The notes under the pieces were generated by a model. The model worked only from the letters and a program-made list of their open reading frames with translations. It did no database searches and was not told the origin of the DNA. Shown here piece by piece: positions 1 to 53,979 of a stretch of 64,000 nucleotides of DNA. Origin of the DNA: Bilabrum cf. latius (Eukaryota); the NCBI GenBank assembly GCA_965178125.1, contig OZ237764.1, positions 248,001 through 312,000 on the forward strand. Direction: 5' to 3'. Position numbers and translations under genes: made by a program. The stretch's first letter is position 1, and the number at the start of each line of letters is the position of its first letter.

Positions 1-430
1 CAAGAGGCCAGCCAAGAAGCCCTCCAGTGAGGCAGGGGCAGGCGCACAGGACGTGCCCAAGCCGCTCGAGAGACCAGCCAAGAAGCCCTCCAGTGAGGCA
101 GGGGCAGGCGCACAGGACGTGCCCAAGCCGCCCAAGAGGCCAGCCAAGAAGCCCTCCAGTGAGGCAGGGGCAGGCGCACAGGACGTGCCCAAGCCGCTCA
201 AGAGGCCAGCCAAGAAGCCCTCCAGTGAGGCAGGGGCAGGCGCACAGGACGTGCCCAAGCCGCTCGAGAGACCAGCCAAGAAGCCCTCCAGTGAGGCAGG
301 GGCAGGCGCACAGGACGTGCCCAAGCCGCCCAAGAGGCCAGCCAAGAAGCCCTCCAGTGAGGCAGGGGCAGGCGCACAGGACGTGCCCAAGCCGCTCAAG
401 AGGCCAGCCAAGAAGCTACCCATTCGTGCC
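1..430 (+). repeat. 66-bp coding tandem repeat (KPSSEAGAGAQDVPKP[LE/PK/LK]RPAK), at least 6 copies, with 198-bp higher-order periodicity
   Basis: GCCAAGAAGC recurs at 11, 77, 143, 209, 275, 341 and 407. Variants cycle LE, PK, LK twice. Confidence 0.95.
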
Positions 431-4312: not shown

Positions 4313-4627
4313 TGCGGCTTCTGGTGCAAAGCTTGATCAACCTGTAGTAGGTGTCGTGACAATGGCACGGTGGACAGCACTGCAAGCTTGTGCATGCGGC
4401 AGCTCTCCTCTCGTCGCGAGTGTGTGACCCGGAAGAGACCCATCCACCCTACCCACCATTTACACTATTTTCAGTGATCGTCTGGGATGCAGCCTATTCC
4501 AGCCTTGAGGTACAAACAAACAATTTTCTTCATAATGAAATTTGATCAATATCTGGAATCAACAATAACAGTCGCATCCGCGGTGCTAGGCCCACGGCGT
4601 GCAGAGTGAGCGTACCACAGAGTGTTT

Positions 4628-10920: not shown

Positions 10921-13900
10921 TCAAGAAACTGCGTACCTCGGCCTCATCTTCTGCTTGCGCCTCTTACCCCCTGGCGCACCCCCGGGCCGCCCGACCTGGA
11001 ATCCACCTGGCACCCCCGTCCCGGGGACACTCGCACCCCCACCAGCCATCGAGGCCGATGACCCCATGGCGGGGGGAGGCTGGACCTGCCCAGCTGCGCT
11101 AGAGCCGCTCGCACTACCTGGGTAAGGAGCCGATGATGAGGCACCTGCCCTCTGGCCCTGCGCGGGCACAGGCCCACTCTGCGGCTGGGGATGGCCGGTC
11201 GAGGGCCGTGCATGATACTGCGGTTGGGTCTGGCTGTATTCCTGCCCGTAGGTTTGCTACCACTGCGCACCACTGCCACCGCTCGTACCTGCTGAGGTGC
11301 CCTGTGAACCAACGCCGACAATGGCTGGGGCAGGGGTTGAGACAGACGAAGAGGGCGGCGGTGGGGGCGCTGCCTTGGGCTCTTCGCTGTCATTCATGCC
11401 AGGAATCACCCAGCGGCCCTTGGCTTTGTCGTAGTACGGCTTGGCACCGGACCCCATGTGTGCCTTGGTGTAGTTCTTCTTGCCACCCCCAGCGGCAGAG
11501 GACCCGCTGCCGAACACCACGCTGCCGATCCACTGCAACATGCCGGTCCCTCCGCTGCTGCCCTCCGCAGATGCAACGCTGCCGGACTTCCCTTGCGCAT
11601 TCTGGCTGCTGCCACCGTCCTGTGATTTGGCCTTCTTGATCGAAGCCGGCACCGAGGAATCGCCTAGAAACGCCATCATCGCCTTCTTGCCCTACTTCTT
11701 CTTCGGTCTGCTGCCGCCGCCTGTGCCCGTCGCGGCCGTGCCCCCTATCGTGACCGACTAACCGCCCGTATTGGCCGGAACAGAGGTAGACGGTGCAGGC
11801 TATGACGAGCTCGATGGGGCTGCATGCAAGCTGCTGGTGCCACCAGTGCTCTACTACGGCCCCACGCTGCTGTTGCCCCTGCTCCTGCTTGCAGACCCTT
11901 GCGCACCCGTTGCACTTCCAACCTGCACCGCTGATGCGGGGCCCCCGCTGGATCCATCCCGCTACTGTGAGCTGCCGACCCCCCGCTGCTGGCCAGTCCC
12001 CGTCTCAGCACTCTGCCATGCTGCTGCACCGTTACTGCCACTGCCCTGCCCCACTGCCCCGCCTGAGCCCCCCAGCAGGTTGCCGATCGAGGAGAGGAGA
12101 GCCTCCGCTGCCCGCCCCACGATGCCCTTCCTAGCCCTCGCCTCCGCCTCTGCAGCGCCTTCCTCCTTGGATCCCGCGTAGTGGGAGCGGAGCAGACGAT
12201 GGGAGAATCCCTCCAGCATGCGCATGAAGGCCGCGTGCAGCAGCTGCCTGCCGGTCGACGCTTCGAGATTCTTGAGCTCCTCTGTTTCCTTGGCGATGGC
12301 CTGCAGGTAGGCCGCCGCCTTGGCGAGAAACCCGAGGTCGGCCAGCCTGATGGCGTACAGCAGCTTGAACGGCAGCAGGCCTCGCATGGGGGTCGTGGGC
12401 GAGCGCCGCCGCTGCGCCAGGGCCAGGACCTCGGTGCGCTGCCAGGCGAACGAGTCCGCACGAACCATCTGCGGACACCGCTTGTGGTCGCCTCCTGCCA
12501 GAACTAGCCTGGATTGGGGCGACGCCGGCTCAAGCCAGCCACCAGCCACGAGATATAGCGTGTGCGCACCGGCTACATCCCCAGCCTCCTCCCAGACGCG
12601 GTCACCAAGCCGAGCCACAACCACGCCGTCGCCCTTCCGACGGTGCCGCAGCAAGGTCGTGGCGCGGCGCCTCCACCACCGGATGGACGCTGGCCCACCA
12701 CCGGTCACCGCTAGATCGGCATCACCTGTGGCCATGCCCAGCACGGCATGCAGGCCGCTGCCAGGACCCACGTGTCTCTGCACGAACTGTCGCTGGACCT
12801 GCTGGTACAATTCCTTGCTGACGCCAGAGGCAAGTAGCAGAGCTAGCGTCCATTTTCCCTGCCTCGCGCACCGCATGGCGGCTTCCTGCAGAGAAGTCCC
12901 CGACGCGAGTGACTCCTCCAGCCAGCTCTCAGAGGAGGCTGAGCTGCTGCCACCATCGCTGGAGCCACCAAGGCGGGGCTCCTCACTCAGCATTCCAGAG
13001 AGATCCTCTGGAGTGCTTGGCCCCGGTCCACCCGTTGAAAGGCCCGGCAGATACGCATCGCACTCGGCCACATCCCTGGCTAGCCGCACCTCAGGGGTTG
13101 CGTCGTCTCGCTTGCTTGGCTCTTCGGTCCTCGCTCTAGATGGGTTTGCTTTGCCAGGTTTGCCGCGCTTCGAGCCCGTCTGTCTCTCCTTGACATCCGG
13201 CCCACTTGTGCTGCTCGCGTCGCTGCTATCGCTGGCAGTATCACTGTCATCACCAATTGAACTACTCTCCGACTGCGGCGCAGTGCAATTTTCGCGGCTC
13301 AACTTGTTGTCCGAGCCACGACCATCTCCTCGAACAACCGGGTCACCAGGTGCAAGCCACGCTCGCTCAAATCCATTCGTGTCCCCCAGCAGCGCGATAA
13401 CCATGGCCCTGATGCAAGTCTCGCCTCTCACCAGCTCATCCACACTCACGTCGCACCGCTTCGCCCTTGCTTCCATCTCAACAGGGTCCGCTGCTCCCCG
13501 TGAGCCGTCAGTATTCTGCAGGCCACCAGCCAGCACAGCAGCGGAGAACCGCTTGGGGCCCAGCGCCAGCACGCCGTCCAAGGCAGCATGCAGTGCGGCA
13601 CCACCGCAGGAGGAGGCTCCTAGCCCCAGCACCCCTTGTGCTCGGCCTCTGCACCCAGCCTCTCGGCGCGCCGCCGGTTCCTTGAGCGATCGCTTCAACC
13701 ACTTCCTGACCTCGTCATCCGTGCATGCCCCGTGCACCAGCGGCCCGGGAAATGACTGCATCGCGACTGCCTCCGCCTCGTCTGCTGCCAGCAGCATCTC
13801 TCGAGTGCTCATTAACAGAGTCTTGCCCGGGATAGCGGCACCGAGGGGCCCGGAGGGCATTGACTGCGTACGGGACACTGCCATGCGCCCGCCGAATCCG

Positions 13901-16900
13901 AAGGTAGCACAGCACGGCCGACGTAGCTTGCGGGCGAGGTCGTCCAACTCCTTTGGTGGGCCGCTGCTCCTCGCGCCCTGCTTGCTCGGTGTGGCGTGCA
14001 TGGCAATTGCCGCTTCGGCTGCTAGGTCTGGCGATGACATGTCGAACAGGTCCCCAGCGAGAGCTGCTGGCGGGGTGGCAGAGCCGCTCGGGGTCGCAGA
14101 TTGTGCTTGTGCTGCCTGAAGCGCGCCGGCATCACCAGGAGCAGACGAGCTCCCTTCCTATGGATGTAAAGGGGCCATGCTGGGAGGCGCGCCCGTACGC
14201 TGCACATGAACGCTCGAATGCGGCTCTGTAGCATCGTACCCATAGTCATTCGTCCCTGTAGCATCGTACCCATAGTCATTCGTCCCTGCCATTTCCTCGT
14301 GACCTTGGCCGCCTGCATCTGTGCCGTACTCGGTGCCGTATGCATCGGAATATTCAGCAGCATAATTTTCGGTGGCTATTGCGGGGCGCGGGTCAGTTTC
14401 TCCATGCTTGCTCTCGCCCTAAGCTGCAAGGGATTCAGCTGTAGTACTAGTCAATGTGCCGCTTGCGGTTCCCCCCAAGGACCCTCGTCTCGGCTTAAAC
14501 CCACCGGCAGGTGTTGCTTGGAAACTGGACGAAGGAACAAGAAGTTGGCCTGCATCGCGCGATGCATCATCGCCAGAAGCTGCAGTACTAGGCTGTGAAC
14601 CTATCTCAGTAGCATTTGACTCTTTGTCTTTGCTCTCTGATTTTGTTGAACCAGCTGCTTTCATTGGCTTGAACACTGCGGGTTTCGCTGCAAACGCGCC
14701 AGCTGGCCCGGTACCAGAGTCGGTTGTCTTGGCAGCGTCATTGGACTCCTAAGCAGCAAAGGTTGAAGCAGGTGCATCGCTCGGTGGGGCAGACTCTAAA
14801 GCATCAGCATCAGGCCGCGAAGATGATTCGCTCATAAGTGCCATCGCTGTGGGTCGAGCAGCCCCATCCGAACTGCTGCCTCCACTCGCAGGGGCAGGCG
14901 CGGCAGTGCTCCCGGCAAGTGCACCCGCAAACCTTGCCGGCATGGGCCTGCCTCCTTTACGCCTTCGCCTACCCTTCGGTACACCGCCGAATATCGGAGC
15001 TTGAGCACGAACTGGTGCTGGTGCCGGGGCTGATGTCGGCGCCGAGTCAGCGCAAGCAGAAGCCGAGGCACGGCCATCTGCCCCCGATAGCGGCGGTTCA
15101 GGTACAGCAGCGCCAATAGCGGCACTATCTTTGCTTGTTCCTGCACCTTGGGCAGCACTGACTGCGGCCTGTCCGTTCGGAGCGGGAGCCGTGTCAGGGA
15201 CTGCCTCTGTCTAGAATGCTACATCCTGCTCAGTCTCCGCTGTACAGTCTGACTATTGCGGCACTCGCTCTGCGGCCTGCTCCTAGTTATAATCGTCACC
15301 CAAAACCTACCTATGAGTGGCGGCAGAGTCGCCGACAGCCCCAGCTGCGCCTGCCTTACCTATTTGAGCAATTGGCTGACTGCTGGATGCCTGCAGTGCC
15401 TCCTGTGATCCAGAGTCCGATTCGCGTACTTTGCTAGCTTCTCCCTCTCCGGCGCCACCATCTGCACCGGTGCCATTCGCAGCTTCCTCGTCGTCCTCAG
15501 CCATATCTCGCTCGGCTGCAGGTTGAGCAGAGTCGGCTGGCGGTCCTGCCAGTGCAATGCTATCCGTAGTTCCCCCAGATTCACCAGGACCAGCGACCGG
15601 CGTATCGGCATCGCACGCACTATTACTTACAGACACGGGTTCTTGTTTAGCTGGCATCGATGGAGTGAACCGTGCCACCGCTGCAGCGGCGGCCGAGACC
15701 CGCTTCCTGCCCTAGCCTTTGCCCCGCCGTCGCGGGGGAGGCGGGACCGAGCCACTTGTGGGTGGCACAGCGGCAGTGGTCGCAGAGACGGGCGTCTCAG
15801 TTGAGACGGCTGGATCTACGGGTGGCTCGCTTGTGGCTTGCTGCTCTAGAGTAGGCGCTGGCTGGCTACTCACTTCCACGTTTGTTCCCGTACTTGAATT
15901 TGAACTCCCAGTTTGCCCGTCAGGCTGGAGTTGGGACATTCCAGTTGCAGTGCCTGCTGCTGGGGGCGACCCTGTTTGCTGGCCCGTGTCAGTCGTGGCT
16001 CCATCTGCTGTAGTAGCCGTAGCCATATCCGAGGCTGGACCTGGGACAGTGGTCTAGCTAATACCAGCTGCAGGCTCCTCTGATGTCGTCCCTGTGGCAC
16101 CATGCGCCACACGGGCCACAGCCCCTGCAGCAGCAGACTTCCCACGCCGGCCCCGTCGACTCGGTGGCGGCGGCATGGGCGATGAGGCCTTAGGACCAGA
16201 TACCGCAGACTTCGCTTGGTTGGCGGCAGCGGCTGCAGCCGCGGCAGCTGCGGACCGACCTCCTCCCCTCAACTTTCTGCGCTTGCTACTGCTGATGCTA
16301 TTGCCGCCAATTGCTGCACCTGCAGACGCCGGCGGCTGTTTTGGCGTGCTGCTAGCTGACTCGGTCACTGCAGCAGGGCTCTCAGGGCGCTCTGCCCGAG
16401 TCGATGCCTAAGATGGGCGAGTCTGCTGACTGTTATCAGTACTATATGCCTGTGCGGGTGTGCTGCCAGGGACAGGTGTGACTTCAGCGGTGCCAGCATT
16501 GCTGGGCTGCCCGGTGTGCTGCATCGTTGGGACGGTTGATGCGGCTGTGGATGGCACCACAAGGCCTTGCGACGAACCTTGCTACGGCAACTGCCCTCCC
16601 GGTTGATGCTATTGCCAACCTTGCTACTACTACCACTACTGCTGCTGCTGGAAGCTATGCTGCTGCGCAACCCCTGCTTCGTGCTGGTGCTGGTTCCCTC
16701 GAGAAGCTCCATGTCCTGCAAAATACTGCTGCTGCCGCTGCCAGGCAGGTTGCTCCGGGGCCTGTACTTCAAGTGGTGCAGGTGCGGGGGTTTGCACGAC
16801 AATGGACGGCTGGAGAGACGCGACCACTCGTTTTCTCCCTCGCCTTGCTCTGCCTGATAGAGCCGACAACGTTCCAGCGCCACTTCCACCAGTGGGCAGC

Positions 16901-19155
16901 TCCGCAAACATTGCCTAGCCGCTGTCACGGGCTGAAACGGCTTGTCTAGCAGCAAAATGAGAAGCGCTTCCCGCTGGCTAGGACTAAGGGGCACTCCTTG
17001 AGGGTGCAGCGGACTACTGAGGCCAGTGACTGTGTCTTTGATTCCCTGCCTGCTGCTTGCGAAGGAACGGGTTGGTGGTTTGAGGAGGCTTCGGAGCTGT
17101 GGTTGCCCCATATGACTGCGACTGCGACTGCGGCTGCGGTAGTGCCTGCTGCACCAACTGCGACGTGTGTCCTATCTGCGATCCATCTGCTGCCCACAGA
17201 TATCCATTCGAATCCACCCAAGCCTGGGCATCTCTGTCCCACCAATGCCCGTCGCTTGTCACCCAGTACCACCGGCCACTCGAAGCGTCTTGGTGCCACC
17301 GACCGCCGCCCTGGGTTAGGGCCGGCTGAGGCGTGCTCTGCCCTACTGTCGAATGCACTGCAGCGGGTTGAACGGAGTGGGGTGCTGCGATAGATACAGG
17401 CGCCTCCTAGGCATTTGACCCCATTCCCACGCTTGCTAATGCACCCTGCTCCCGGGCTGGAGCCGATGGTGGCTGGGGCTGGGGCTAGGGCTGAGCCTCG
17501 CGGCTGAGCGCCATGTCGGCAGTATCCTATGCAGGTAGATCTTGGCTTCCGGGTGCAGATGCAGGCGCATCTGTTGCTCCGCACCCTACACCTTGTCGAT
17601 CGGCCATCTCACCCATGCCATCCACCACGCTGTCATCTGCACCTGCAGGTGCCCCATCTTCGCTCGAATCATCGCCATCGTCCTCGTCCTGCTCGTCCTC
17701 GCCCCCTTCGTACCCATCGTCCTCATGGATCGCAACTGAGCCGATCCCCAGGCCGCCTATTCCCATCGACTCGACCCCCTGCACGCTGCCCCCTCGGAAC
17801 AGCCGCCTCGCCGCGCGTCTCCTCTCGACCTCAGTGCCGTACCCAGACTCGCTCTCTGATGCGCCATCCAGGTCACCGAATAGATCCGCAGCAGAGATTG
17901 TCCCAACCTTTTTGGCAGAAGCAGGGGCCTGCTGCTAGTCCCCGGATCCCACAGCCTCGCTAACTGCCTCCTCCACAGGGGCCTGCTGCTAGTCCCCGGG
18001 TCCCACATCCTCGCCGACTGCCTCCTCCACAGGGGCCTGCTGCTAGTCCCCGGGTCCCACAGCCTCGCTGACTGCCTCCTCCACAGGGGCCTGCTGCTAG
18101 TCCCCGGATCCCACAGCCTCGCCGACTGCCTCCTCCACAGGGGCCTGCTGCTAGTCCCCGGGTCCCACTGCCTCGCTGACTGCCTCCTCCACAGGGGCCT
18201 GCTGCTAGTCCCCGGATCCCACATCCTCGCCGACTGCCTCCTCCACAGGGGCCTGCTGCTAGTCCCCGGGTCCCACTGCCTCGCTGGCTGCCTCCTCCAC
18301 AGGGGCCTGCTGCTAGTCCCCGGGTCCCACAGCCTCGCTCACTGCCTCCTCCACAGGGGCCTGCTGCTAGTCCCCGGGTCCCACTGCCTCGCCGACTGCC
18401 TCCTCCACAGGGGCCTGCTGCTAGTCCCCGGGTCCCACTGCCTCGCCGACTGCCTCCTCCACAGGGGCCTGCTGCTAGTCCCCGGATCCCACTGCCTCGC
18501 TGACTGCCTCCTCCACAGGGGCCTGCTGCTAGTCCCCGGGTCCCACTGCCTCGCTGGCTGCCTCCTCCACAGGGGCCTGCTGCTAGTCCCCGGATCCCAC
18601 AGCCTCGCTGGCTGCCTCCTCCACAGGGGCCTGCTGCTAGTCCCCGGATCCCACAGCCTCGCTAACTGCCTCCTCCACAGGGGCCTGCTGCTAGTCCCCG
18701 GATCCCACAGCTTCGCTGGCAGGCCAAGCCTACCCTCCAACTTCTTCGTGATCTAGCCCCGTGTTGATGCTTGCCCTAGACCTACTTGGCATTGCCCGCC
18801 CTGCCTCTGTCCCGTGCCCCTCGTGCAGGCCCACGGTAGTGCCAGTCGCCATGGCTACAGTTGCTGGCGAGAATAATGATGACCCGGCTACCTCGGGAGT
18901 TGGTCGGGTGCATACATTCACTGGGGGCTCTCTTTGTCTTATAGGAGTGACTAAATGCTACTCAGTCAACTCTGCACGTTCTCCGCTTCTATTTGGCTAG
19001 ATCTCTCTCGATTGTGCTGCTGATATAAATTCTTCATCCTGAACTAGGTCATGTTTATCATCAGTCGACGAATACGGCCAGTTCCGCTCGCTTTCATCCG
19101 AATCCATGCGTTGGTCTTGACCTGCATCGGAATCCGTGGCTATATGGGCGATCAT
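10921..19155 (-). CDS. SEC16: COPII scaffold Sec16, single exon, 2744 aa with TAG=Gln
   Basis: Sec16 motifs TFGFGGR, FPGPL, AHTLYLVAG…RLVLAGGDH…QRTEV, PFKLLYAIRLADLG, YYDKAKGRWV and C-terminal RPRY. The 8235-nt frame from ATG 19155 to TGA 10921 has no TAA or TGA but about 48 TAG (hand count). Confidence 0.9.
17925..18720 (-). repeat. 54-bp coding tandem repeat, 15 copies, in the Sec16 N-terminus (AVG[S/P]GD-TAG-QQAPVEEA[V/A][S/G]E)
   Basis: CTAGTCCCCGG on the + strand recurs every 54 nt from 17935 to 18691. Confidence 0.95.
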
Positions 19156-19594
19156 ACTAGGCTCAAAACGTGGATATGTTAAATCACAATATTTTTAGTA
19201 CAATCACATTGCAATTTGATTGTGAACACGAACACAGAATTCGAATAGGAATCAGCAACTCTGCTGCAAAGGCAATAACACCCTAAATTTGATTCGTTGA
19301 TACTTCTGTGCTCACCTGGCGGGTACACCAATGAACAGAAAATAATAAAAAAACGTTCTGAACTACCCTGGACTAGTTTTAGGTCCTGTATGCCACAAAA
19401 AAATAGTATGATTTAAGCTTAGGTAGCGTACTGTTTGTTAATGTAACGAGAAAAGTACGATTTTATGCAATGGGGATGGAGCCAGCGCTGCTCGAAGGCG
19501 ACAGTACGCCCTGTGTACCACTTGGGCTACAGTTCTCTGTCTCTGCTTTGATTCTGAAATAAGTTGGTATTGGATTCTAGATTCGGAGGCTGGA
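19156..19594. promoter_or_regulatory. AT-rich divergent intergenic region, a likely bidirectional promoter
   Basis: GC content drops markedly between the head-to-head starts of Sec16 (19155, -) and the secreted protein (19595, +). Confidence 0.45.
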
Positions 19595-22432: not shown

Positions 22433-25400
22433 ATGCAACTGAGGCCATGGCTTTGCACAGCTATGACGCTATCAGCTGCACATATGATCAGCTTTGCCCT
22501 AGCAACGACGGGATCCCTTCGGGGAGAAGCAGGCGTCGACACAGGAGCTGACTTCGATGACTACTACCACTAGCAGGTTGGGCTGGTGCTGAGCTTGAAC
22601 GCGAGGCCAGAGGACTAGAACTAGTTAACATGCAATGAGCTATCCGTCATGCCTGCACTTCTGAAGAACGTGAGTCTGCAGGCTGCTACAAGCGTTTTTG
22701 TGGAGTATTCACCCACGTGCTTGTTTCACTTCACGTGCTGGTTTTCCATGCTTTTGGAACGGACAGCCAAACGTAATATTTAACAGTAATCGGGTCGCTT
22801 GTGAACTATCGCTCCCACTGTTGCTCGTGTGCTTGATTTGTACGCAGAAAGTGCAATGTCGGCCGGCGGGTGAAGATCACCTGGTCCTGCGGATGTGCGG
22901 CACGGGGCAGGGGTGCGATGTGAGCGAGGCCACAACCGCCATTCAGGCGGTTGCTAGCCGACATGGAGCATCTATAACCATCGTACACGCGCATCATGAG
23001 CACCAGATGTCGCACACACACAGGGCCCTGCTCGAGGTGCGGTCCGAGAGCAGCAACAACAACGTTGACGGTTTCCATGCACGAGATTTCCTGAGCATCC
23101 AGCACACAGGTCTGCTTAGTATCGCCCGCCGTACTATGCCAGTAGAAACCGCCGAGGAGTCTGGGTTTCTCCACGGTGGCAGATACCTGCATGAGGAGTC
23201 TGCGTACCTGCCCGGTGTAGGCAGCTCAAAGATCCGCTATATGGCGATTCTTCGCAATGACACGATCGTTCTGGAAGAAAGGCCCGAGGTCGTCCGCATC
23301 GAATGCCCAGACGAATCTGATGATCTTACAGTTGTGTCTGCAGCGCCACTTCACCTTCAACCCGGCCAGCCGATTGCATTTGAGGCGGGGTGGGGATGTG
23401 CCGCAAGGAAAGGTAAAGGCGTGTACCAGGTGCGAATGGCCGGAGTATCTGTCTAGGAAGACGATGTCAAGTCTGAGCCTACGCCAACGGCGCAAACGGT
23501 TCTCGTAATCATGGCAGAAGACCCTGTGCCTGGCATCGATGCCAACACGGGCTTGCCTGTCTGGTCGACCAAGGTGCGCGCTGAAACGGTGCCAGCCAAC
23601 AGAGGGGCTGAGCTGCTGGATCTAAATTTTGAAATGGAGCCCGAGCCCGAGGTGTTGGAAGGCGAGACAACTGAGGAGCATGTTGCCCGGGTTCTAGCAT
23701 CGCCAATACACCAGCACGGTGGAAGGAGAGCCAGTGCGGTGGCTTGCGAAGACAAGACGGCCGGCCAGATGGAAACCACTGTCGTGGCGCTGAACTTCGA
23801 CTGCAGCGCAACCCTCTTCGAGTACGGATTCAACTGGAACTTCAAAACAGAGAAGGCCGTCTAGGACAAACTGAGTCTCGTGGGAGACTCAGTGTACTTC
23901 TCGGACACGTGAGCACAAGAAACTGTTGCCTGCATATGTAACTCCAGCTGCCTTGCAGGTTGATGCTCCGCCTATACCACTCGATGGAGTAAGCCAGTTG
24001 TCCTTTGATCGCTTGATCTCGTTGCAGGTACGCATACATCAAGGCCAAGTTGAAGTTTGCGTTCGCGGGGTATGCGTCGGCCTCGTCTGCTGGGGTGACC
24101 CGTATGATGGTGGAGCTCAGCGGAGATGCAAAAGTGAAGGCGGATCTCGTTCTGCAGCAAGACAAGCTCGAATCGACCAAGGGTATCAAGAAGTTTGGGG
24201 ATCCTGTGGCGCTCACCGAACGCACGCTCTCCGTAGCTGGTCTGCCGGTCACTATCGGTGGATCGGTACAGATGGGATCCAAGGCTGCCAACTCAGACGG
24301 TGCCGCTCCGCTAAAGCTGACTGTTGGTGCCACTGCTTCAGCTAGTGTCAAGCTTGGGTACAACTACGCAGAAACGCACAAGCTGAAGAGTGACCCGAAC
24401 TGCTTCTGCATTTCGGCTGTCTACACTGTCACTGGTGGGAGTACCGAGTACTGCTATGTGAATCAAGACTGCAGTGCAAGCGGCGTGACCTCTTGGCGCG
24501 GCTGGTCAACCAAGTACGCCCCGGCAGCTTCCGGCGATTTGACCGAGTGGTCGGAAAAAGCCATGATCTCGGAGGCCAGCTGGGGCTTTGAGTACCGCCC
24601 ACTCACCATTGCACAGGACAGCGCCAAGACTGGAATTGTCGCGGCAAGAAGCAAGGTGCACATCGGCCCCTACCTCGTTCTGATGCTGTACAAGAGCATC
24701 CCAATCAACGTGTTTCTTGGTGGTGAGCTCAGTCCTCACGTTGCCCCGACGTCGGGAACGCCTCCAGCTCTATCAACCGTGACTGTACCGTCCGGTTTGA
24801 AAAGGCGTCTGGGACTCACAACGGCTACATCGGAAGACGAAGGCGGGTTTACACCAGCCGGTGGTTCGCGACGGCTCGCCGGGGCGGCGTGTGCCGACTC
24901 AACCGTTGGCCTGGATGCTGGAGGGGTGCATCTCTCCCTCGGTGTTGGGGACGTCAAACTCAAGCTGAGTGAATTCATCAGTGCCCTAACAGACGTCACG
25001 CTGATGGAGGGCTTCGACTTGACGGACGTAAAGATGTCCGAATCGTCGAACCTCCTCAGCATCAAGGGAGCATGCGACGGCGCAACCAAACAGGTTGGCG
25101 CGACCGGAGGGGGTGACAGCGGAGGCAGTACCGGCGGAGGCAGTACCGGCGGAGACGGTGCCAGCGGAGGCAGCACCAGCGGAGGCAGCACCAGCGGAGG
25201 CAGTACCAAGAAGAAAAAGGGCAACGGAGGCGTCATTGCGGGTGCTGTAATTGGATCGCTGGTTGGAGTGGCCGCCCTGGGTGCTGCTGGCTTCTTCGTC
25301 TACACCACGTACTTTGGACCGCAAGCAGCAGCAGCAGCAGCAGCACCAGCCAGCAGTGGACCAGGAGCCGGCAACGTCGTGAACAACCCAATGAAGGATG

Positions 25401-25507
25401 CGCCGCAATCCAAAACCAAGGACGGAGATGCAGCGAAACCCAACTCGGATGCTGCCGCGAAACCCAACTTGGATGCTGCCGCGAAACCCTCTGCCTCCTC
25501 CGTGTGA
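22433..25507 (+). CDS. Type I membrane/surface protein of unknown function; at least 3 exons
   Basis: Signal-like N-terminus; introns at about 22577-22847 and 23909-24027. In-frame TAGs at 22571, 23454 and 23862. Gly/Ser linker followed by TM GVIAGAVIGSLVGVAALGAAGFFVY. TGA stop. Confidence 0.7.
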
Positions 25508-26003
25508 ATTATTGCGATCAGATCCTGCGAGCGTTTGCAGCATAGTTGTTGCACACGCGAGTGGGAGCCTTGGCGGGCCTCAGCCTGCCCTGCGTGTCAA
25601 TTGAAGTCAGATCCTGGATCAGTGATCCTCTACACAGTTTTGCCTGGCTCGGCATCCCCCTGGACCCAGCGTTGGAGGGAAGCTTGCGTTTGTTTGCCCT
25701 ATCCTGGATGCCTGGGCTAAATTGTGAGCACAAATTGTCGATATCCCGCCCGGATCCGGATCCTGGATCTTCTTCAATTTTTGTGAAAGTAGGCTACGGG
25801 TTACCCTGAATTAAGGTTAAGACAGCCAGCCTTACAAACATGCATCAAAAGACCACCGAATGGGTGAACTCCTTCTGTGGATGCGGTCCACCGCACAAGA
25901 CCCACCTGCCCCCCATCCCCTCCCCATGAGCCAGCCAAACCTCCCGATCGGGTGGCCAGGTTCTAGTTTGATCCAGGCGCACTACCAGACCTGTCTAGCT
26001 TCC

Positions 26004-26855
26004 TTAGGGATGCCCACCTTTGACCTGTTGCTAGTGCGCAGACATGGTGCTCCGAATCGTCGTCGCGCTCTAGTCTGACCCTCGATATGCCTCCATTGAC
26101 GACACAGAGCTGCCACCAGTGGCAGTTCCCAGCCCTGCCCCGGGCAAGTTCCCACCCAGAGACCGCACCACATCCTGCCTCCATTGCGGCTTCACCGCTT
26201 GATCTCCTGCAGCCGCAGAGCTGCCCTATGCGACTCCCGTTGTTCCTTCGACAGCACCGCTTGACCCTGCCTCGACCATCCCCATCGACGGTCCGAGGCT
26301 CAGAGCACCACCTACGCCCAGCGCTGCGCCGCGAGGCGTACCGCTGGTTTCGGTGCCAGGCACAGGCACAGGCACAGGCACCGTGTCGGAGGACACACTC
26401 GCCACACCGGGTGGCGCCATCCCGCCACCCGCTGGCATTTGTGGGGGAGAACCGTGTTGAGCGCCGGCTTGGCCTTGCGCATGCGCTGGTTTGACTGCGC
26501 CGGGGCTGCTACCCTTGCCCGAGGGCAGATGAACCGCCCCGCCACCCGTCGCACCGTGCGACGCACCCTCCTCGGCTTCCACTCTAGGGCTGTCCCCGCT
26601 CCTGAGGCTCATGAGGATGTCTGACACGGCGTGTCTCTCTTGACTCTCAAACCGGCCCTGCGAGCTGTCCGAGCCCGAACCCGAGCCCTGCGCGTTGTCG
26701 CTGTCGTTGCCGGTATCTGCACCTGATGAGCTCGAGTTCGTGTGGCTTGATTGCCTCCGACGGCGGCCATTTTTCCGACCTGACCGACGGGAGCGGCTCG
26801 CCGTCAGCTGCAAGCGAGGCGGCGGGGCACCGCTCGTGCCAGACCTCGATTGCTA

Positions 26856-26889
<34 letters not shown>

Positions 26890-27968
26890 CCAAAATCCCC
26901 TCCCAGACTGCTTCTCGCCCCATCTCCTGCGGATCGGCCCACCGCACCTCCGGGCCCCCCATCTCTCGCGCCACCAGGACCCATCCCCATCCCGAGCCCG
27001 AGCCCCAGCCCAGTTCCCGTGGAGGTCGGTGACGTGGCATCGGGCATGCCCGCGTCCGAGCCGGAGCGGCCGCCCGCGGTGCCGGCGCCGGTTGCGGTGC
27101 TGGCCCGTCCAGCCGATGCCGACCCACCTCCAGTACGCATCGCACTGTCGCCGGTAGAACCAGAGGAGGAGGCCACGGAGGGTCCACGCACGCGCTGCCG
27201 ACCAGTCCCAGCAGCACGGGATGATCCTTGCGCGAGGCTCGGTTGTCGACCGGATAGCCCAGCGACAAGCGAGGCATCTGCTACCATGGGGTAACCAAAC
27301 CTCGCGTCGTTCGGCTGGGAGGACTTTTGGGAGCCCTCGGAATGCGCCCCCGTGGCCTCGGGTTGGCTTCTCCACTCTGGGCGCATCCCTTGCTCCACTC
27401 TAAGCCTGTAGTTCTCGGCAAGCAAGCTTTGATTTTCACTAACAAGTCCATTCACTCTGCGCAGAAAAAAAACGGATTGGGAGAGCACGGGTGCTCGGGC
27501 ATGGGCCAGGACAGATCAACCTTGCACTTTCGTTCGAATCCCTTTCTGCTTCACTACTGCTGGTACGCGACAGGATCAAGCCTATCATCGCGTACCCTCA
27601 AATAATCATCAAACATAAAGTCGATCAAGTCGACGCAAGCGAGAGACTCTACCGGCTGCTGCACTTAAGCATGTATTTTTCTACTGTCACGTGGCAGATG
27701 TCAACACTTCAACTGCAAGCTCGCTGCTACAAAATATCAATGAAATGCGCTGGAATGCGTCTCACTGTACTTTAAGTTGATCTACTCTCGATTCTAGGTC
27801 CTGAACGTGCCTTCTTTTTCGTTCTCGTGAAGCTGCAGCGCTCTCCCGGTTCCGGAGCTTTCTTGCTGCCGCCTTGTCATGTCTGGCTGCCTCTCGCAAC
27901 TCCTCTTCATCTGGAGCTCTCCCTCGTTTCCTTGATGTAACCTTTTTACCCTTTCCAACTCCAGACAT
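26004..27968 (-). CDS. bZIP transcription factor; 2 exons (intron 27765-27457)
   Basis: Basic region RKLRNRESAAASRERKR and a zipper LESRVDQLKVQ|VNGLVSENQSLLAENYRLR spliced in phase. The low-complexity tail runs through TAGs at 26853, 26226 and others to TAA at 26004-26006; the next TGA is at 25845. Confidence 0.8.
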
Positions 27969-28219
27969 GATCGGTTTCGACACCCGTGTATTGATGTGTA
28001 AGCGATGGGACTCACGTGAGGAAAGCGAAGCACGCCAGGGCCTGCGGTTCGCTGCAAGCGGTGAAGGTTCCTTGATCAGCCTGATGGCCCAGTGATGGGG
28101 CAGCCATTGGGGCTTGCCACAATGAATAGAATGATGCTTACAAACAAATTTTGTGTCAGCCACATCACAAACTTGCAGCCCACTTGCACTGGGCCCACCC
28201 ACCCAACGAGCCGGGCCCT

Positions 28220-31200
28220 TCAGGTCCCCTTCCATCCGGTCTTGACCCCAAGCATCGCCTCCAGGGCGCGATTGTACGGACGGTAAAACGCCGCCAGCTC
28301 CGCCTCTACGTCCTTAGGGATGGGTTGGTACCCTCCTTGCAGGGCCCACCCGCTGGCGTCCTCAAAGCGAGGGTACAGGAGGGCGAAGTGCTCCCCCATG
28401 CTCTCCTCCGTCGTGGACGCAAAGTCGAAGGGAGACAGGCCCAGGAAGTCCGTCACGCGACGCATCGTGCCGTTCGCGTCTCTTTTAAGCTCCGAATCCA
28501 GCAGCACCAGCACCCGCTCCCTGGGCAGGTGGCCGAGTAACCTCCTCAGGTGGGGGGCATACATTCCCCTGAGCAAAAAGTCCCTCGCTATGTTGGAGCC
28601 TGTTCCCTGGGGCCAGCACCCGGGGGTTGACCCCACTGTGGGGCGCAGGGTGGGGTTGCGTCCGCTGCTCAGTGCGGCGGTCACTTTATCCACCACCTCG
28701 GGATCCACGAGAGGGGCTGCATCGGCGAAGGCAGCGCCGAACCACAGGCTGCCGGACTCTGCACCGGCTCTCTCCGCCACGTCAACCACGTCAGGGCGAC
28801 GGCCTGACCCAGTGTCGTTGGCTACCTCTCTCGCCGCCAGAGCCGCCGCAATGGGCTGCACCCTGGCCCACCCTTCGTCCTGGATGCACACCATGTCTCT
28901 GGTATCCAGCCCGATAGCCCCCGCTTGCGCCCCCGCCTTCCTCGCCTGCCTCACGTCCCCTTTGACCACCCCCAGGCCCATGGACGAGTCGTGCACGAAC
29001 CGCTCCAGTCGGTTGGCAAGCGCCAGTGCCTCTCTTGAGAGGCCAGCCTCCTGGGCATCACCAGGCCCAGCCGAGCCGTGGCCACCGCCCCAGCCCAGCC
29101 AGGTCCCGTCGCTGGCCCGCCCCCTGTTTTTGCCCTCTTCAACACCCCCCTTGCCATGACTCTCATCAAGCCCCTCTTCATTGTTCGACCCATCCCTCCT
29201 CGCCTAGCCCTAGCCCTAGCCCTAGCCCTCGCTGGCATGGGCATGGTGGTGATCACCATCGTCCTCCCCCCGCAGCATGTCGTCCTCCCAGGGAACAAGA
29301 GAACCCTCCCTATAGCCTCCCTGTTGGGGAAAACGATGCGCACCCCCCCGCACCGGCCCGTTAGCCCCCCTTTTCGCTGTTCCCCAGAAAATCTTACCCA
29401 GCCACTCCACCCACCCACCCCCGCCTGCCCCTTCTTCAGCACCAAGCCCGGCCCCATCCCCATCCCCCTCTTCAGCACCAAGCCCGGCCCCATCCCCATC
29501 CCCCTCTTCAGCACCAAGCCCGGCCCCATCCCCATCCCCCTCTTCAGCACCAAGCCCGGCCCCATCCCCATCCCCCTCTTCAGCACCAAGCCCGGCCCCA
29601 TCCCCATCCCCGAGTTGGCGCCAGCCATGTGCGACAGAGTGGCCGCCCCCCGCAACACTGGGTAGCGCCAGGCCACTGCCGGGGGCAGGCCACCCCGCTC
29701 TCTGTCGGGGTACAGCCGCCGCCCCCGATTGATCGCCCTGCTCATATCCGCCCTCTGAGCCCACTCGGTGCGCGTGCTTCACCCCATGCTCCAGAGCTGC
29801 ACGAGCCGAGGCTGCCGCGAAGCCGCTCAGAGCCCGGTTCCTGCCCCCCACGACCCCCCCCCGCAGCAGTCGCAGCAGGTGCCACTTCCTCCTCTGCCCC
29901 AGGCTGCGCCCCCGCCAGGTTCTCCTAAAGGACGCCTCCCATTCCACGGGCCCACCGGCTGGCACGACCTCCCTGCCCTCGTTGTCCCACACGTCCTCTT
30001 CGCCCCCGAGACCAGCATCCGCAGCGGCGGACCCGGAGAAAGGAGGCACGAGCGCGGGGTGCAGGAAACCGGAAGTGCTCCTGGCCGCCAGCTCGATGGC
30101 GGAGGCTGGAGACCGCGGCTGCACGAGGCTCCCCGTCAGGCGCTGCGCGGTGAGCCACAGGTGGTCCTCCAGCCGACGGCGGGCGATCGGCCCCCGGTCT
30201 AGCCAGGGCAGGGCGGGATCTGCCTTTCCCGGCATCCTGCGCATGTTGGGGAGCCGCCGGGTGCCGATGGGGGGCTGCTTGGGGTTGCCGAACCCATCGT
30301 GGCCCGGCTGTTCCCCATGGACGAGAGCCCTGGACACGGCCCCTGGGTCTCGCATGGCCGACATGGCCAGTCCTAAGGGCGCCTCCAGGGTGCTTTTGAT
30401 CCGGTCAACCTCTCCCGGGCCCACTCGGCCCCACGCTCCGGCTTGCTGCAGTTCTTTGACTTCAGCGTGTGCCGTCTCCAGGTCGATGGGATCCAGTCCC
30501 AGCGCAGGAGGCCCCACGCCTGTGCCAGTCGACACGGATGACAGCACACGGCCGGGGCCAGACAGGGCCACGCGCCTCTCTGACGAGTTCCGCCACCCGC
30601 TGGAGCACCCGCCACCAAATAGCGCTGTGGGTTGCGCTTGGGGCCGCTGTCTCTTCGTAGGCTTGGAGGGGCCGCCACTTCCTGGGTCTTGCTGTTGCTG
30701 ACCATGCTGCTGGATCAATGGGGCGGTCAACAGCTGGGCCTATCGGCGGGTTGCAACCGCCTACGCTTGTTCCCTGGTTTGAGCCACGTGGTGGTCCGGT
30801 TCATCGCATGGCTCCAGGCACCTGGAGGCCAGCGCAATTTCGGTTGCAACCGCGTCCCTGAGGCTCTGCTCCACCTCTGCTCTGGTGGTGGGGTCTGTGA
30901 AGCAGCGGAGGTAGCTGTCCATCGGTGCGTGCTCAACGGATATGTTGGGGCCATCCACTGAGGAGGGGGCTAGCATTCGCTGAGACGTTCGGCTTGCTCC
31001 GCTGGGGGTACCGCCCCTTGTCGAGTTGCTCGCGGCGCTCTCAGCCTGCAGCTGCCTGCTCCCCGCCCCGCTCTCCTACAGCTGCACGTTGATGGGGGGC
31101 AGGCCTGGAGCTCCCAGAGATACCTCCAGGGACTGCAGCGTGGCTTCTGCGTGCAGCCGCAGGCCCGTCCTCGCTGTGCCAAGCACTCCCATGACGGCTG

Positions 31201-42728: not shown

Positions 42729-45350
42729 TCAGAGAACCAACTCAAGCACCCTGGGATAGTCGATAAGCTCCAGCTCCAATGCAAGCTGCATGGTTGGCCC
42801 TCCTCCAGTCTCAGCGGCATGCCCCAGCGCGCACCGCAGCTCTGCCACTCGCGAGCTGCTGTTCGAGACAGGGTCGAACAGAGCCGGAGCACCATCCTGA
42901 GGGCATCGAATGGATTGGCCCGCAGCAGCATAGACCGTCATAGACACATTAAATGGGAGCACCGGGGCGCTGCTGGGCTCGTGGCAGCGGTACTAGATCT
43001 ACCCTTTGCTAGGGCCTTGGCCCATCCCGTCTTCGCACGGCCCCTGTGACGAGTGCGCCCAAGAGCTGATACCTCGGACTACCACATCCTCCGGGTCGCC
43101 CCCCTGCGGCACGATCGGCCAGTGCCTCGCATCCCGGGTCACCACATAGGCCAGCACGGCCAGCCGACTGGGGCCCGAGTAGTACGGCAGGATGGCCACG
43201 GCGTCTCTGGCCAGTATGTCCGGATGTGCGTCGTCCGGAGGACCACCACTCTCTGATGAGTGCCCGTGCACCATGACGGTGTCGTGGTCGTCGGTCACGC
43301 GAGACACATTCACGACCAGAGGAGGAGTGGGAGAGGGAGGAGAAGACGCGAGTGAATCGGAGCCGACTGCTGTCGTGCCACCAGAGGAGCCAGCCGCGGC
43401 ATCCAGCAGGAGCTTCACGCTGCGAAGGGCAGGAGAAGTCATGGATGAGTCGTTGCTAGGGTAGGGCGCCTCAGGGTGCGCCACAGCCCACTGCACGAAC
43501 TCGTCCAGGACCATCCCGAACGAGGTGTCGCCCGATGTGGCATCGAACATGCACAGCTTCTCTACACCCTTGTGCAGGTAAAACGCGAAGTATCGAAGGG
43601 CCATCTTCTGCTTCCAGACTAGGGCCTTCTCCACCGTCACGTTGGGCCCAAACACCTGCGTGGGCAGCGAGTTGACCTCGGTGATCCACACGGGGCACTC
43701 AATCACAGTCCCATTGGAGGCGCGCCTTGCAATTGATCCGTGGATCGCGCCGTTGATGCTGTTGTTGTAGGGCCCCGCATCTCGGAGCAAGCTCTCAGTC
43801 TACAGGTAGTGCCCCGAGTACTCCGGCATCACGGCAGTGTACCTGTACCCGTTGGACGATAGCGAGTCATCGCGTCCGAGCGCGTTGACGGGGTGACCCT
43901 TCTGGCCGGGGCTGGGCTCCGGGTACGTCCTGCCCGTGTGATAGGGGTGCTTTGAGATGGCTCTGAAGCGGTCCGGTTCCTCCGTGGATGCGGGCCACGG
44001 CACGGTGTTTCCGATCCCATCCGTGATGCGGACGCCGGAGAAATCCCCGGCGTTGGACAAGGCGGCGTGGGCCGTTGCGTTTCGCATCGCCACCCAGACG
44101 TCGCTGTCCCTTGCCTCTGGGTACAGCGGCGGGTCGTAGTACTTGTTGATCTGCAGCGTGTCCGAGCCGAATGTGAGCTCGCTGCGATAAAAAGTAAATC
44201 TGTGGTATTGTATACGGGGCGTGGGCTCGCAGCAGCAATCGTGAAGACTACCGCAAGCAGGGGGCAGGAGGTGCGTCGGAGGGACCGCGCTACAACATAC
44301 AATGGGAATCGCCGTAAACACAACGATCACGCTACGGCCGACTTACTTCCACATCTCCAGATCGAACCCCACGGTGTCTGCCAGCGGCCCCATCACCCGC
44401 CTGGCGAAGGAGGCCACGCTGCCGGCGTACTTGGACCATCCGAGCAGGGTCTCTTTGCCTTCTGGAGTGCCCGGGGGAGCGAAAGGTCGATACAGCATGG
44501 TGTTCAGCTGCAGCTCGGCGCCTGCCTGGATGGCAGCCAGCAGGGGCCTGGACAAATCGGCGCACACCGATGGACCGGGCCCATCGGAGGCCGATGGAAC
44601 GAACCCATCGGAGGAGCCCGCGGAGTCGTTGTGCAGACCCGTGAAAAACGTGTGGCACATGTCGCCTCCGCTGTACGCCGGTTGCTGAAACCCTGAGTAG
44701 TTGGCTCGTAGCTCGAACGGCTCGTGCCAACCGCTGGTACTAACCCTAGTGCCGGTCAGTGTTGCGCCACTCGTCTGCCTCGTGACTGCGACAAGCAGGC
44801 GAGCGGGGCTTTCCCACTGGTGCGCTTCCGTCTTGAAGGAAAAGCAGATGGATCGGGCGCCTTTCGCGGCATTGGATGACACGGTGGCTCTGGTGCCGAT
44901 GTTCGGGATGGGAGCGCCAGAGTTGCCGTTCAAGAGGAGCACCGGGCGGATGCCAGCCCGAGATAAACCCTGCAGCTTTGCTTCCCACTCGTCGGGGTTA
45001 AGGACTTGCGACTCGTTGTAGTAGTTGAAATGGCCCCAATCCACCTCGAATCGGACGTTTCTAATGCCTTGGCGCGCCATGTGTTTGGCGAGTAGCCTGG
45101 CGCTCCCCGAGAAGTTCGTGGTGCCGTGAAGATTTCCACCAAATACAAGCCCAACTCCATTCAAAAGGTGTGAAACTGGCCGAGTATTGATGTACGCACG
45201 CCACGGAGGCAGGAAATGGGAGTAAGATCCGAATGGAACGGCATCGATCCACGACTAGTTGATGTAGCTGTACTGATCGACTAGCCTTGCACTTGCTAGC
45301 GTTGCAAGTACAGTGCAATACATAAACGATGACACGCAAAGTACACCCAT
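42729..45350 (-). CDS. Secreted putative glycoside hydrolase (clan GH-A-like); 2 exons (intron 44346-44182)
   Basis: Signal peptide; NVRFEVDWG; splicing creates EMWNELTFG (NE acid/base motif); ISKHPY; VWITEVN (nucleophile-like). Several in-frame TAGs; TGA at 42729. Confidence 0.6.
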
Positions 45351-50716: not shown

Positions 50717-53700
50717 ATGCAGGCCGCAGGTGGAGCCGCGGAAAGTGGCGGTTTAATGTCAGCTCTATCGTAGGAGCTGAAAGCTATGGGGGGAGACCAC
50801 CGACATGACGATGGTGATGGTGAGCATATTGCCTCACTATTGGCTATCCCTCAATCGTGCGCCCGGGTGCCGTTATGTGCCTCCCTGCGCATTTAATGTA
50901 TCCATGTGTGCATGCTACCATTATTTTGGTCAGAATGCTGCTATTTCTTCCCCTTGATCTGTTCATCGTGCCACGTTTCGCAGAACCGTCCCCTTTGGAG
51001 CACCTCGAGAAGGCAACGGTGCTTTAGGATTGCCGTGTTTTCCATGATGACAAATATGTTGCATAGCATCCTAAACGATGCTGCATGCACATGACCAAGC
51101 TGTTGTTCCTGCTTGCACAGGGAGAGTCCCTGGGTAGCGAAGCAATCGACGTATTTTTCGGAGTAACGAAGCTCTTCATGTCGCCCAACGTAAGCATGCA
51201 GAACGGTTTGAAATTAAGATTTATCAGCTCATCATTCGAAATGGTAGCTGCCCTTATCTCCCCCATGCGCTACTGACCACCGCAGGGCAACTTGCGCCGT
51301 CTCGTGTACCTGTTCCTGAAAGAAGTCGCCGAGCAGACTGACCCGAGCGACCTGCTGATCGTGACTTCCTCCCTGGTGAAGGACATGAACGACACGGACA
51401 TCGGCCTGTTCCGCGCCAACGCCATCCGCGTGCTCTGCAGGATCGTTGATGCAAGCACCCTCAACAGCATAGACAGGTACCTGCGCCAGGCCATCGTGGA
51501 CAAGGGGAACGACTACGTGAACTCTTCGGTCATCTTGGCAGCCTACCAGATGATGGAGGACCCTGCCAAGGCCGAGGTGGTCAAGCGATGGGTGGGCGAG
51601 CTGCAGACTGCCCTCGAGTCCGGGGGCGACATGGTGCAGCTGCACGCCATCGCCGTGCTGCACGCAGTCAAGAGGCAGGACAAGCTGGGCGTCAGCCGTC
51701 TCATCGGCAGCATGATGCGCTCCGGGCTGCACTCGCCCCTGTCCCTCTGCATGCTCATCCGTTACACGACGGACCTCATGCGCAGAGACATGTCCGTGCT
51801 GGACTCAAGCCAGGCCTACACCTTTTTGGACCAGTGCACCAGGAACAAGTCGGACATGGTGCGATTCGAGGCGGCAAAGGCCATCTGCAACCTCCCAGGC
51901 ATTGCCGCGGACGACATCCGCCCGGCAGTCACCGTGTTCGGCGACATGCTGCAGTACGCCGTTCCTGTGCACAAGTTCGCGGCCGTGCGCCAGCTCGCCA
52001 AGGTGGCCAAGACGTACCCCTCCGAGGTGATTCCCTGCAACTCGGAGCTAGAAGTGCTGGTCCAGGATTCGGACAAGACCGTCTCCACCTTTGCCATCAC
52101 CACGTTGCTCAAGACGGGCAGCGAGACCCGGGTGGCATTCCTCCTCAAGCAGACGCAGACGCTCTTTTAGGGCGACCTGTCGGACGAGTTCAAGGGCATC
52201 GTCGTGGAGGCGCTCCATGATCTTGGCCTGAGGCTGCCCAAGAAAATCCCGGAGCTGCTGCGGTTCCTGCAGTTCACGCTGCGGGATGAGGGCGGCTTCG
52301 AGCTGAAGCGCAAAATGGTGGACGCGGTGGTGGACATGCTGGAGCGGTTCCCCGAGGTGCGGATGGAGGCGCTCATGTACCTTGCCGAGTTCATCGAAGA
52401 CTGCGAGCACGACGCTCTCTCCATCCGTGTGCTGCACCTCTTCGGAGACAGGGGCCCGCAGACACCCACGCCTGGACGCTTCATCCGGTACATCTACAAC
52501 CGGATCATCCTCGAGACGCAGCCGGTCAGGGCGGCCGCGGTCACGACCTTGGGCAAGTTCGGGACTCGGGTGCCAGCTCTCAGGGGCAGCATCATCACGC
52601 TGCTACGGCGGTGCCGGCACGACGATTCGGATGAGGTCAGGGACAGGGCGCTGACCTTCCTCAGCGTGCTGGAGCGGGTGGAGGGCGAGGCGGGCCAGGG
52701 CCAGGGCCAGGGCTAGGGCCAGGGGCAGCCTGCAGGGTCCGCGGCAGCAAGCGGGGCCAGTGCCTCGGCGGCGGCGGCGGCGGCGGCGGCGTCTGGGGCC
52801 GGGTCCGCGACCGATTCCGACTCTGGGATCGCGCGCGTGGCGGCGTCCTTGACAGCGGGCAAGCTGCCCATGCCGGTGGGCGCGCTCCGCCGGAGCCTGC
52901 AGATGTATCTGCTGCGACCCGCGTCGGGCCCCTTCAGTCTGGCCACCCTGCCTGCAGTGGAGGGCGCCGAGGTCGGGGAGCTGGGGTACTTTGACCTGGC
53001 GAAGAACGTGCACGACACTGCGGTGCAGGCCGCGGTCGCCAAGCGGGAGAAGGCCTCGAGCGGCCAGAGATCCAAGACAGGGGCCGGGTCTGGTGCAGGG
53101 GCAGCTGGCGCGGCCTCGGGGGCGGGGGCGGGGGGCGGGGCCGGTCCTGCCCAGGCAGAGGACGCGGCTGCTGCCCTCTTCAAGATCCCCGAGATGGCCA
53201 AGCTCGGTGCGCTCTTCCAGACGGTGCCGGCGCGGCGCCTCACGGATAAGGAGCTAGAGTACCAGGTGCAGGTGTCCAAGCACGTGTTTGCGGAGCACGT
53301 GGTGTTTGATTTCGCGCTGACGAACACTGTGGGCGACCTGAGGATGGACAACGTGACGGTGCGTATGACACCGGGGGACCCCTCCCTCTTCCTGCCGCAC
53401 GCGGTGCTGAGCGCGGGGTCCATCGGGGGCAACGAGACGAGGCACGCGTACGTGTCTTTCCAGCGGGTGCCTCACGCGAGCGGCGTGGTCCCTCGGTCCT
53501 CCTTCGAGTGCAGCCTCGATTTCCAGTCGGTGGACATTGACGAGGCTTCGGGGGAGGAGCTGAGCGACCCCGTGGATGAGGTGTATCCCCTTGACAGGCC
53601 CGTAGAGTTTAGCGCCAGGGACATGCTGCGACCGCAGGCCATCTCTGATTTCAGGCCGCAGTGGGAGGCCATTGGCAACGCCGGAGAGGAGCAGTTCAAG

Positions 53701-53979
53701 CTCGAGGTGCAGGCTCCCACCGTGGCGGCCGTGGCCAGCCGGCTGCTCAAGGCAAGCGGGCTGGCGGCCTGCGGGGGCACCGGCAGCATAAGCTCCACGC
53801 AGGCCAAGGCCTAGCCGTTGCTTTCGGGTACGTTTGCGAGTGGCGAGAGGGTGTTGGTGCGGACCATGCTGGTCAAGCCGCAGGGGACCTCGACGGTCAT
53901 GATGCGAGCCGCTGTGCGGTGCACCAACGCCGCCGTCAACCCGGCCGTGTCGCTGCTGATTCGATCATTGCAATCATGA
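50717..53979 (+). CDS. COPG: Coatomer subunit gamma; 3 exons (50717-50819, 50984-51189, 51286-53979)
   Basis: Motifs HLEKATVL*DCRVF, LRRLVYLFLKE, FRANAIRVL, LSDEFK, EFIEDCE, RYIYNRIILE, VRAAAV and DEVRDRA, plus an appendage domain. In-frame TAGs at 50771, 51025, 51064, 52168, 52714 and 53812. TGA at 53977-53979. Confidence 0.95.

Follow-up and report, generated by a model that had tools for sequence, protein, structure and literature searches.

Can a nuclear genome turn UAG into a sense codon and leave UAA as a stop? UAA and UAG are nearly always reassigned as a pair, and a single reading frame raises the question here: that of Sec16, the COPII scaffold, at positions 10921..19155 (minus strand) of a 64-kb stretch of genomic DNA (contig OZ237764.1, positions 248,001 to 312,000), hereafter the window. 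The original prediction proposed that UAG had been reassigned in this organism without UAA and that UGA was the dominant stop. Both parts of the proposal agree with our analysis, in which 125 TAG and no TAA codons stood in frame and 21 of 22 genes ended in TGA. We consider it highly probable that the organism, whose genome is GC-rich and poor in introns, and at least one related species read UAG as glutamine while UAA and UGA still terminate translation, the pattern of NCBI table 15. The window has a G+C content of ~60% and holds 52 frames of at least 300 codons when TAG is treated as a sense codon, versus 21 under the standard code.

The Sec16 frame is open over 10921-19194 (minus strand), 2757 codons from stop to stop, and its first ATG coincides with the start predicted earlier (19155). 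The coding sequence comprises 2744 sense codons and ends in a TGA at 10921-10923, the only TGA in the frame. It had been described as carrying about 48 TAG, many CAA and no TAA; we counted 48 TAG, 40 CAA, 126 CAG and no TAA, with TAG making up 48 of the 214 Gln-type codons. Pfam matches to TPR_Sec16 (PF12931; E = 3.5e-28, residues 2095-2340) and to the Sec16 mid-region (PF12932; E = 8e-6, residues 1763-1843) place both the central conserved domain and the Sec23-binding TPR-like region in the predicted protein, which confirms, at the level of domain content, that the gene encodes Sec16. The TAA triplet is not missing from this DNA, since it occurs 5 times in one and 11 times in the other of the two remaining minus-strand frames; TAG outnumbers TAA in every frame of the region. 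A 54-nt tandem repeat inside the gene (17922..18718, 14.8 copies), whose unit reads GGG GAC TAG CAG CAG, contributes 15 of the 48 TAGs as copies of one codon, so ~34 of the Sec16 TAGs are independent. A poly-Q tract at ~16600..16680 (minus strand; residues ~849-872 of the stop-to-stop frame, with coordinates converted from residue numbers) mixes CAG, CAA and TAG (CAG CAG CAG CAG TAG ... TAG TAG TAG CAA).

The pattern extends to the other genes of the window. A codon-usage score was trained on eight frames that were long or supported by homology (9,392 codons in total). In frame, these contain 80 TAG, 0 TAA and 0 TGA, compared with 323, 103 and 648, respectively, in the five remaining frames. 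The 23 gene models comprise 16,847 codons, of which 125 are TAG, 180 CAA and 556 CAG, and none is TAA, bearing out the earlier observation that the modelled genes have no internal TAA. The 125 TAGs lie in 113 distinct 33-nt contexts and account for 14.5% of Gln-type codons (125/861). At least one TAG occurs in 18 of the 23 models, among them those of the Sec16, coatomer gamma, DHHC, Tubby and DUF938 genes. UAG serves as a normal, commonly used sense codon. Its use is uneven, ranging from none of the 41 Gln-type codons in the gene at 47318-49750, which is rich in G+C at third codon positions, to 48 of 214 in Sec16; avoidance of TAG in highly expressed genes may be the cause.

Which amino acid UAG encodes can be read from its surroundings and from homologues. 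With repeat copies dropped, the residue most enriched beside TAG is Q (2.17-fold, compared with 2.0-fold for Q beside Q), and of all residues it is Q whose neighbour profile most resembles that of TAG. In the Sec16 poly-Q tract, as in the GQ repeats of two other genes, TAG stands among CAG and CAA codons; the GQ repeat of the sulfotransferase-domain gene (29204..29224, minus strand) is written with four TAG codons. Coatomer gamma allows a column-by-column comparison. Its upstream exon (50977..51189, plus strand) holds TAGs at 51025-51027 and 51064-51066, and its main exon (51283..53979, plus strand) holds TAGs at 52168-52170, 52714-52716 and 53812-53814 and ends in TGA. The two exons are separated by an inferred in-frame intron (51190..51282, plus strand; GTAAGC...CGCAG) that contains a TGA at 51274-51276. 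The first TAG falls in the 'VLqDCR' column, which is Q in 82 of 88 ungapped homologues (119 aligned), and the second in the 'VAqHPK' column, where Q is the commonest residue (32/92). The TAG at 52714-52716 lies inside a GQ repeat.

Of the 80 loci found by searching metagenomes with coatomer gamma, two (L001 and L002) belong to a close relative and keep the neighbouring gene in the same arrangement. Over 596 aligned residues, the window and L001 are 84% identical, and eight positions carry TAG in one or the other: five are TAG/CAG swaps (TAG in the window at two, in L001 at three), one is TAG in both, and two fall in poorly aligned low-complexity sequence. The TAGs at 51025-51027 and 52168-52170 are CAG in L001, while that at 51064-51066 is TAG there too. 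Among the 80 loci, an in-alignment TAG opposite Q was seen in L001 (4/5) and L002 (3/3) only, and 54 loci contain no in-alignment stop at all. None of the more distant coatomer-gamma loci in the scan (≤46% identity) has a TAG opposite Q, so the code change appears to be confined to a small clade. On these sequence comparisons, UAG is glutamine.

Other observations concern the same gene and its relatives. L001 has an extra coatomer-gamma intron at ~4340-4560, after '...AAYQMM', which is absent from the window (~51560); the difference is an intron gain or loss between close relatives. The coiled-coil gene at 47318-49750, beside coatomer gamma, has the same divergent arrangement in L001 and ends in TGA in both. 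A 516-aa database protein (P0002), 79% identical to the window coatomer gamma, covers part of a ~950-residue protein of a further close relative. It was predicted with the standard code and is truncated at both ends, which would fit in-frame TAGs in that organism as well.

The 23 models end in TGA 22 times and in TAA once. Models G and H probably represent a single gene, with an inferred intron at 23909..24027 (plus strand; GTGAGC...TTGCAG) between open reading frames 22674-23908 and 24028-25507; because this intron starts with GTGAGC, the apparent terminal TGA of the first frame is part of a 5' splice site. Merging the two leaves 22 genes, of which 21 end in TGA and one, a bZIP gene, in TAA, in line with the 20 of 21 TGA ends and the single bZIP exception proposed originally. 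The coatomer gamma TGA lies at the conserved C-terminus, where homologues end. UGA is the main terminator, and its being by far the commoner stop is as expected at ~60% G+C.

The bZIP gene (exons 27766-27968 and 26004-27456, minus strand; terminal TAA at 26004..26006) carries the case for termination at UAA. Contigs of three sequencing runs (X5, X7 and X9) were mapped on 25800-45500. We treated these runs as RNA because they show GT..AG joints, seven in total on the minus strand, that have no counterpart in the DNA run X4. When spliced at these joints, six genes have uninterrupted frames, one of which encodes a clear bZIP protein. The codon-usage score drops at the terminal TAA of the bZIP gene, from 0.19 before the triplet to -0.03 after it. 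No splice-site context surrounds the triplet, and RNA contigs of X7 and X9 run through it without a break, so it is not spliced out. These contigs end at 25891 (X7) and 25957 (X9), short of the next in-frame TGA (25845-25847); we made no use of this, as contig ends cannot define a transcript end. UAA is thus likely to terminate translation, judging from the sequence of this one gene.

With TAA at the end of 1 of 22 genes, an alternative is that UAG encodes glutamine but UAA is unassigned or a poor terminator, that UGA is effectively the sole stop, and that the bZIP end is an exception or mis-modelled. The scarcity of TAA ends, on which this alternative draws, is nonetheless compatible with base composition: the out-of-frame ratio of TAA to TGA (103:648) predicts 13.7% TAA stops, and 1 in 23 is not significantly few (P(≤1) = 0.156). 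The change from coding-like to non-coding-like sequence at the bZIP TAA, and its position within unbroken RNA contigs, also speak for a genuine stop. In the earlier UAG-only cases treated in PMC5304391, UAA stayed a stop. We therefore regard a genome with UGA as its only effective stop as unlikely, and prefer termination at both UAA and UGA.

A second alternative is that UAG is ambiguous, in the manner of Condylostoma or karyorelict ciliates, and is read as glutamine internally but also terminates translation close to the 3' end. Some genes do carry a TAG shortly before their stop, for example at a distance of 8 codons in the EGF-repeat gene and of 9 codons from the bZIP TAA, and sequence alone cannot tell which codon stops translation at such 3'-proximal TAGs. 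However, none of the 22 models needs TAG as a stop: each has TGA or TAA at the end of its coding-like sequence, and the TGA of coatomer gamma stands where its homologues end. We consider ambiguous decoding quite improbable, and favour UAG as a glutamine codon.

A third alternative is the ciliate-type code (NCBI table 6), in which UAA and UAG both encode glutamine and TAA is merely rare because of high G+C. The ~60% G+C, the excess of TAG over TAA in every frame and the small size of the window would all suit it. However, codons ending in A are common in the same genes, as shown by CAA against CAG (180 vs 556), GAA against GAG (251 vs 803) and AAA against AAG (107 vs 450). The original prediction reasoned that TAA should appear at a fraction comparable to that of CAA and CAG if UAA were glutamine. 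Under the CAA share (24.5%), ~40 TAAs would be expected among the UAR codons (UAA and UAG), and none was seen (P = 6e-16; 4e-15 on unique contexts). For comparison, a coatomer-gamma locus from an AT-rich metagenome contig (L079; GC 0.38) shows what a true UAR pattern looks like, with 10 TAG and 3 TAA aligned to residues in one gene. Its organism is probably UAR-reassigned, such as a ciliate, and unrelated to that of the window.

Three further checks are not circular with respect to the gene models: a table of frames delimited by TGA only, a flank scan of stop triplets and the flanks of the TAAs that bound the models. In the flank scan, all 2,984 stop triplets on both strands were examined for coding-like codon usage in both 50-codon flanks, without TGA. 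It passed 49 of 953 TAG, 1 of 417 TAA and 3 of 1614 TGA triplets, a pattern unchanged at three other settings, and one of the three TGA matches is in the in-frame intron of coatomer gamma. The scan recovered 47 of the 125 curated in-frame TAGs; at this sensitivity, ~15 of 40 sense TAAs should have shown. Among TGA-delimited frames, the TAAs of real genes are confined to the 5' edge, the end of the bZIP gene and positions 44343-44345. The last is the only in-frame TAA within a long coding frame, and it is intronic: it lies in the GTAAGT start of a 165-nt GT..AG intron (44182..44346, minus strand) that is kept in the DNA run X4 and removed in the RNA contigs of X5 and X7. For every TAA that bounds a model, codon usage is non-coding-like on the outer side. 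TAA therefore behaves like TGA in these model-independent checks and TAG like a sense codon; UAA behaves as a stop, not as a rare sense codon. We give the table 6 code very little credence and retain the table 15 pattern.

The TAA matches themselves were inspected and rejected. The sole TAA that passed the flank scan, at 21658 (minus strand), was judged to be noise. It lies in an intergenic patch of ~60 codons that is rich in Glu, Gln and Lys and lacks a long open frame; a TGA stands ~85 codons upstream. The extra matches obtained at looser settings (11759, 14750, 61839 and 43579, all plus strand) are antisense to Sec16, Tubby and gene P.

The RNA contigs also bear on the UAG codons. Within 25800-45500, 19 of the 36 in-frame TAGs lie in the listed RNA contig pieces, with no differing letter; the remaining 17 lie outside these pieces and are uninformative either way. 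The sole difference between RNA and DNA among the listed pieces is 39782 C>A. Where RNA contig pieces cover UAG, they show it unedited. That the in-frame TAGs are not translated as such, being products of pseudogenes, assembly errors or UAG-to-CAG RNA editing, has almost no chance of being right, given that 18 of 23 models are affected, including the conserved Sec16 and coatomer gamma, that frames run without TGA or TAA for up to 2757 codons, that one DNA run and three RNA-like runs carry the same letters, and that the coatomer gamma gene of a second species carries TAGs at different Gln positions. We found nothing in favour of this alternative.

At one RNA joint, the 249-nt gap 34665-34913 (minus strand) holds a 6-nt micro-exon (34768-34773) flanked by AG and GT. 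The X5 and X9 RNA contigs carry six extra letters at this joint that match the micro-exon, and the spliced frame is open only when it is included.

The simplest mechanism for the separation of UAG from UAA would be the following. A tRNA-Gln with anticodon CUA would read UAG and would lie one mutation away from tRNA-Gln(CUG); UAA would escape it for want of pairing between C34 and A. A tRNA with anticodon UUA would be absent, and eRF1 would have lost recognition of UAG while keeping that of UAA and UGA. A dedicated tRNA would be favoured over leaky read-through, because 48 TAGs in one frame require nearly complete decoding. The 64-kb window contains no tRNA gene detectable by ARAGORN or by Rfam at gathering thresholds.

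As to the organism, the best named relatives of the window coatomer gamma are all stramenopiles: Cafeteria roenbergensis (42% identity), Bicosoecida sp., Aurantiochytrium and Aplanochytrium. A quick single-gene tree places the protein beside the Cafeteria group with a Shimodaira–Hasegawa-like approximate likelihood ratio test (SH-aLRT) value of 100, on long branches and with skewed composition. From this protein we take the organism to be a bicosoecid-related stramenopile.

Several points weigh against the proposed code or narrow its basis. The zero count of TAA is partly circular, as the models were cut at TAA, and the evidence spans 64 kb plus ~6 kb of a relative. UAA as a terminator depends on a single gene, bZIP. 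The TGA ends of models O, R and U stand in a GTGAG-like context and could be 5' splice sites; the TGA end of model R is conserved in L001. Distant homologues do not have Q in three of the five TAG columns of coatomer gamma (M/L, gap and M/T); these columns are variable or gapped and hence uninformative. With no tRNA gene in the window and eRF1 encoded outside it, the mechanism is one that we infer. Finally, the stramenopile placement relies on one protein and a quick tree, with the branch lengths and composition noted above.

The nearest known system is the fornicate Iotanema spirale, whose nuclear code reads UAG as glutamine and keeps UAA and UGA as stops, according to Panek et al. (2017; PMC5304391). 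As described there, UAG alone is reassigned, to glutamine, and UAA is never in frame, as in the window; that account also proposes a tRNA-Gln(CUA) derived from tRNA-Gln(CUG), the mechanism that we propose here. The paper further mentions a UAG-only lineage whose eRF1 has no obvious change. The two cases differ in three respects. Iotanema is a metamonad, in contrast to the stramenopile studied here; UAA is its dominant stop, as the same paper reports, whereas UGA dominates in the window (21/22); and the Iotanema work was transcriptome-based, whereas ours combines genomic DNA with RNA contigs. Iotanema had been cited in the original prediction as an example of a UAG-only code. The accompanying statement that such codes are known in very few eukaryotes was too narrow, as several lineages are listed by McGowan et al. 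(2024; PMC11687900). That list gives Iotanema, Protocruzia tuzeti and two phyllopharyngean lineages with UAG as glutamine, the rhizarian exLh and a phyllopharyngean with UAG as leucine, and Scotinosphaera with UAG as serine. Going by this list, Protocruzia tuzeti and the two phyllopharyngean lineages share the table 15 pattern but acquired it independently; they are ciliates, a group with many code changes, unlike the stramenopile here. In exLh and Scotinosphaera, as listed, UAG is likewise uncoupled and UAA kept as a stop, but the amino acid is leucine or serine rather than glutamine.

Other codes resemble that of the window in part. The table 6 codes of ciliates, hexamitins, ulvophytes and oxymonads (UAR = Gln) also read a stop as glutamine and keep UGA as a stop, but they use both UAA and UAG, whereas TAA is absent from the reading frames here. 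In the ambiguous codes of Condylostoma, karyorelicts and Blastocrithidia, the reassigned codon also terminates, which no model in the window requires of TAG.

A full-text literature search, whose scope excluded subscription journals and the most recent papers, yielded no description of a nuclear code variant in a stramenopile. The sequencing runs with this DNA date from 2025, and a description may exist or be in preparation. We lean, with little more than even confidence, towards this being the first nuclear code change in stramenopiles, in a clade of at least two bicosoecid-related species with UAG as glutamine, UAA and UGA as stops, and a GC-rich genome in which UGA is the main terminator. 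To our knowledge, it would be the first uncoupled UAG code with UGA-dominated termination in a GC-rich genome.

AT pressure is usually invoked to make UAG rare before its capture. If our reading holds, the change would not be attributable to AT pressure, because it arose or persists in a GC-rich, UGA-dominated genome. Each independent uncoupling of UAA from UAG tests why the pair usually changes together, and this case bears on both the codon-capture and the ambiguous-intermediate models of code change. It could also bring to light a variant of eRF1 able to distinguish UAG from UAA. Given that DNA and RNA runs from four studies contain this sequence, a culture of the organism may exist and would then offer a tractable system for studying this discrimination. 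For annotation, standard-code gene prediction would break most genes of the organism and its relatives. Table 15 would be the right choice, not table 1, and table 6 would wrongly read through TAA stops.

Pfam matches on both strands of the window identify eukaryotic housekeeping genes. They include genes for a DHHC palmitoyltransferase, a sulfotransferase-domain protein, a DUF938+ACT protein, coatomer gamma, an EGF-repeat protein and a Tubby protein. At window 2-500 (plus strand), the first gene, which is open at its 5' end, starts with ~6 tandem copies of the 21-residue unit KRPAKKPSSEAGAGAQDVPKP. A long region resembling a coiled coil comes next, and the gene has no Pfam match. The sulfotransferase domain of the gene at 28220-32524 (minus strand) is apparently split: its N-terminal half is the Pfam match at residues 106-249, and sulfotransferase-like sequence returns near the C-terminus, after ~1,000 low-complexity residues that include GDGDGAGLGAEE repeats.

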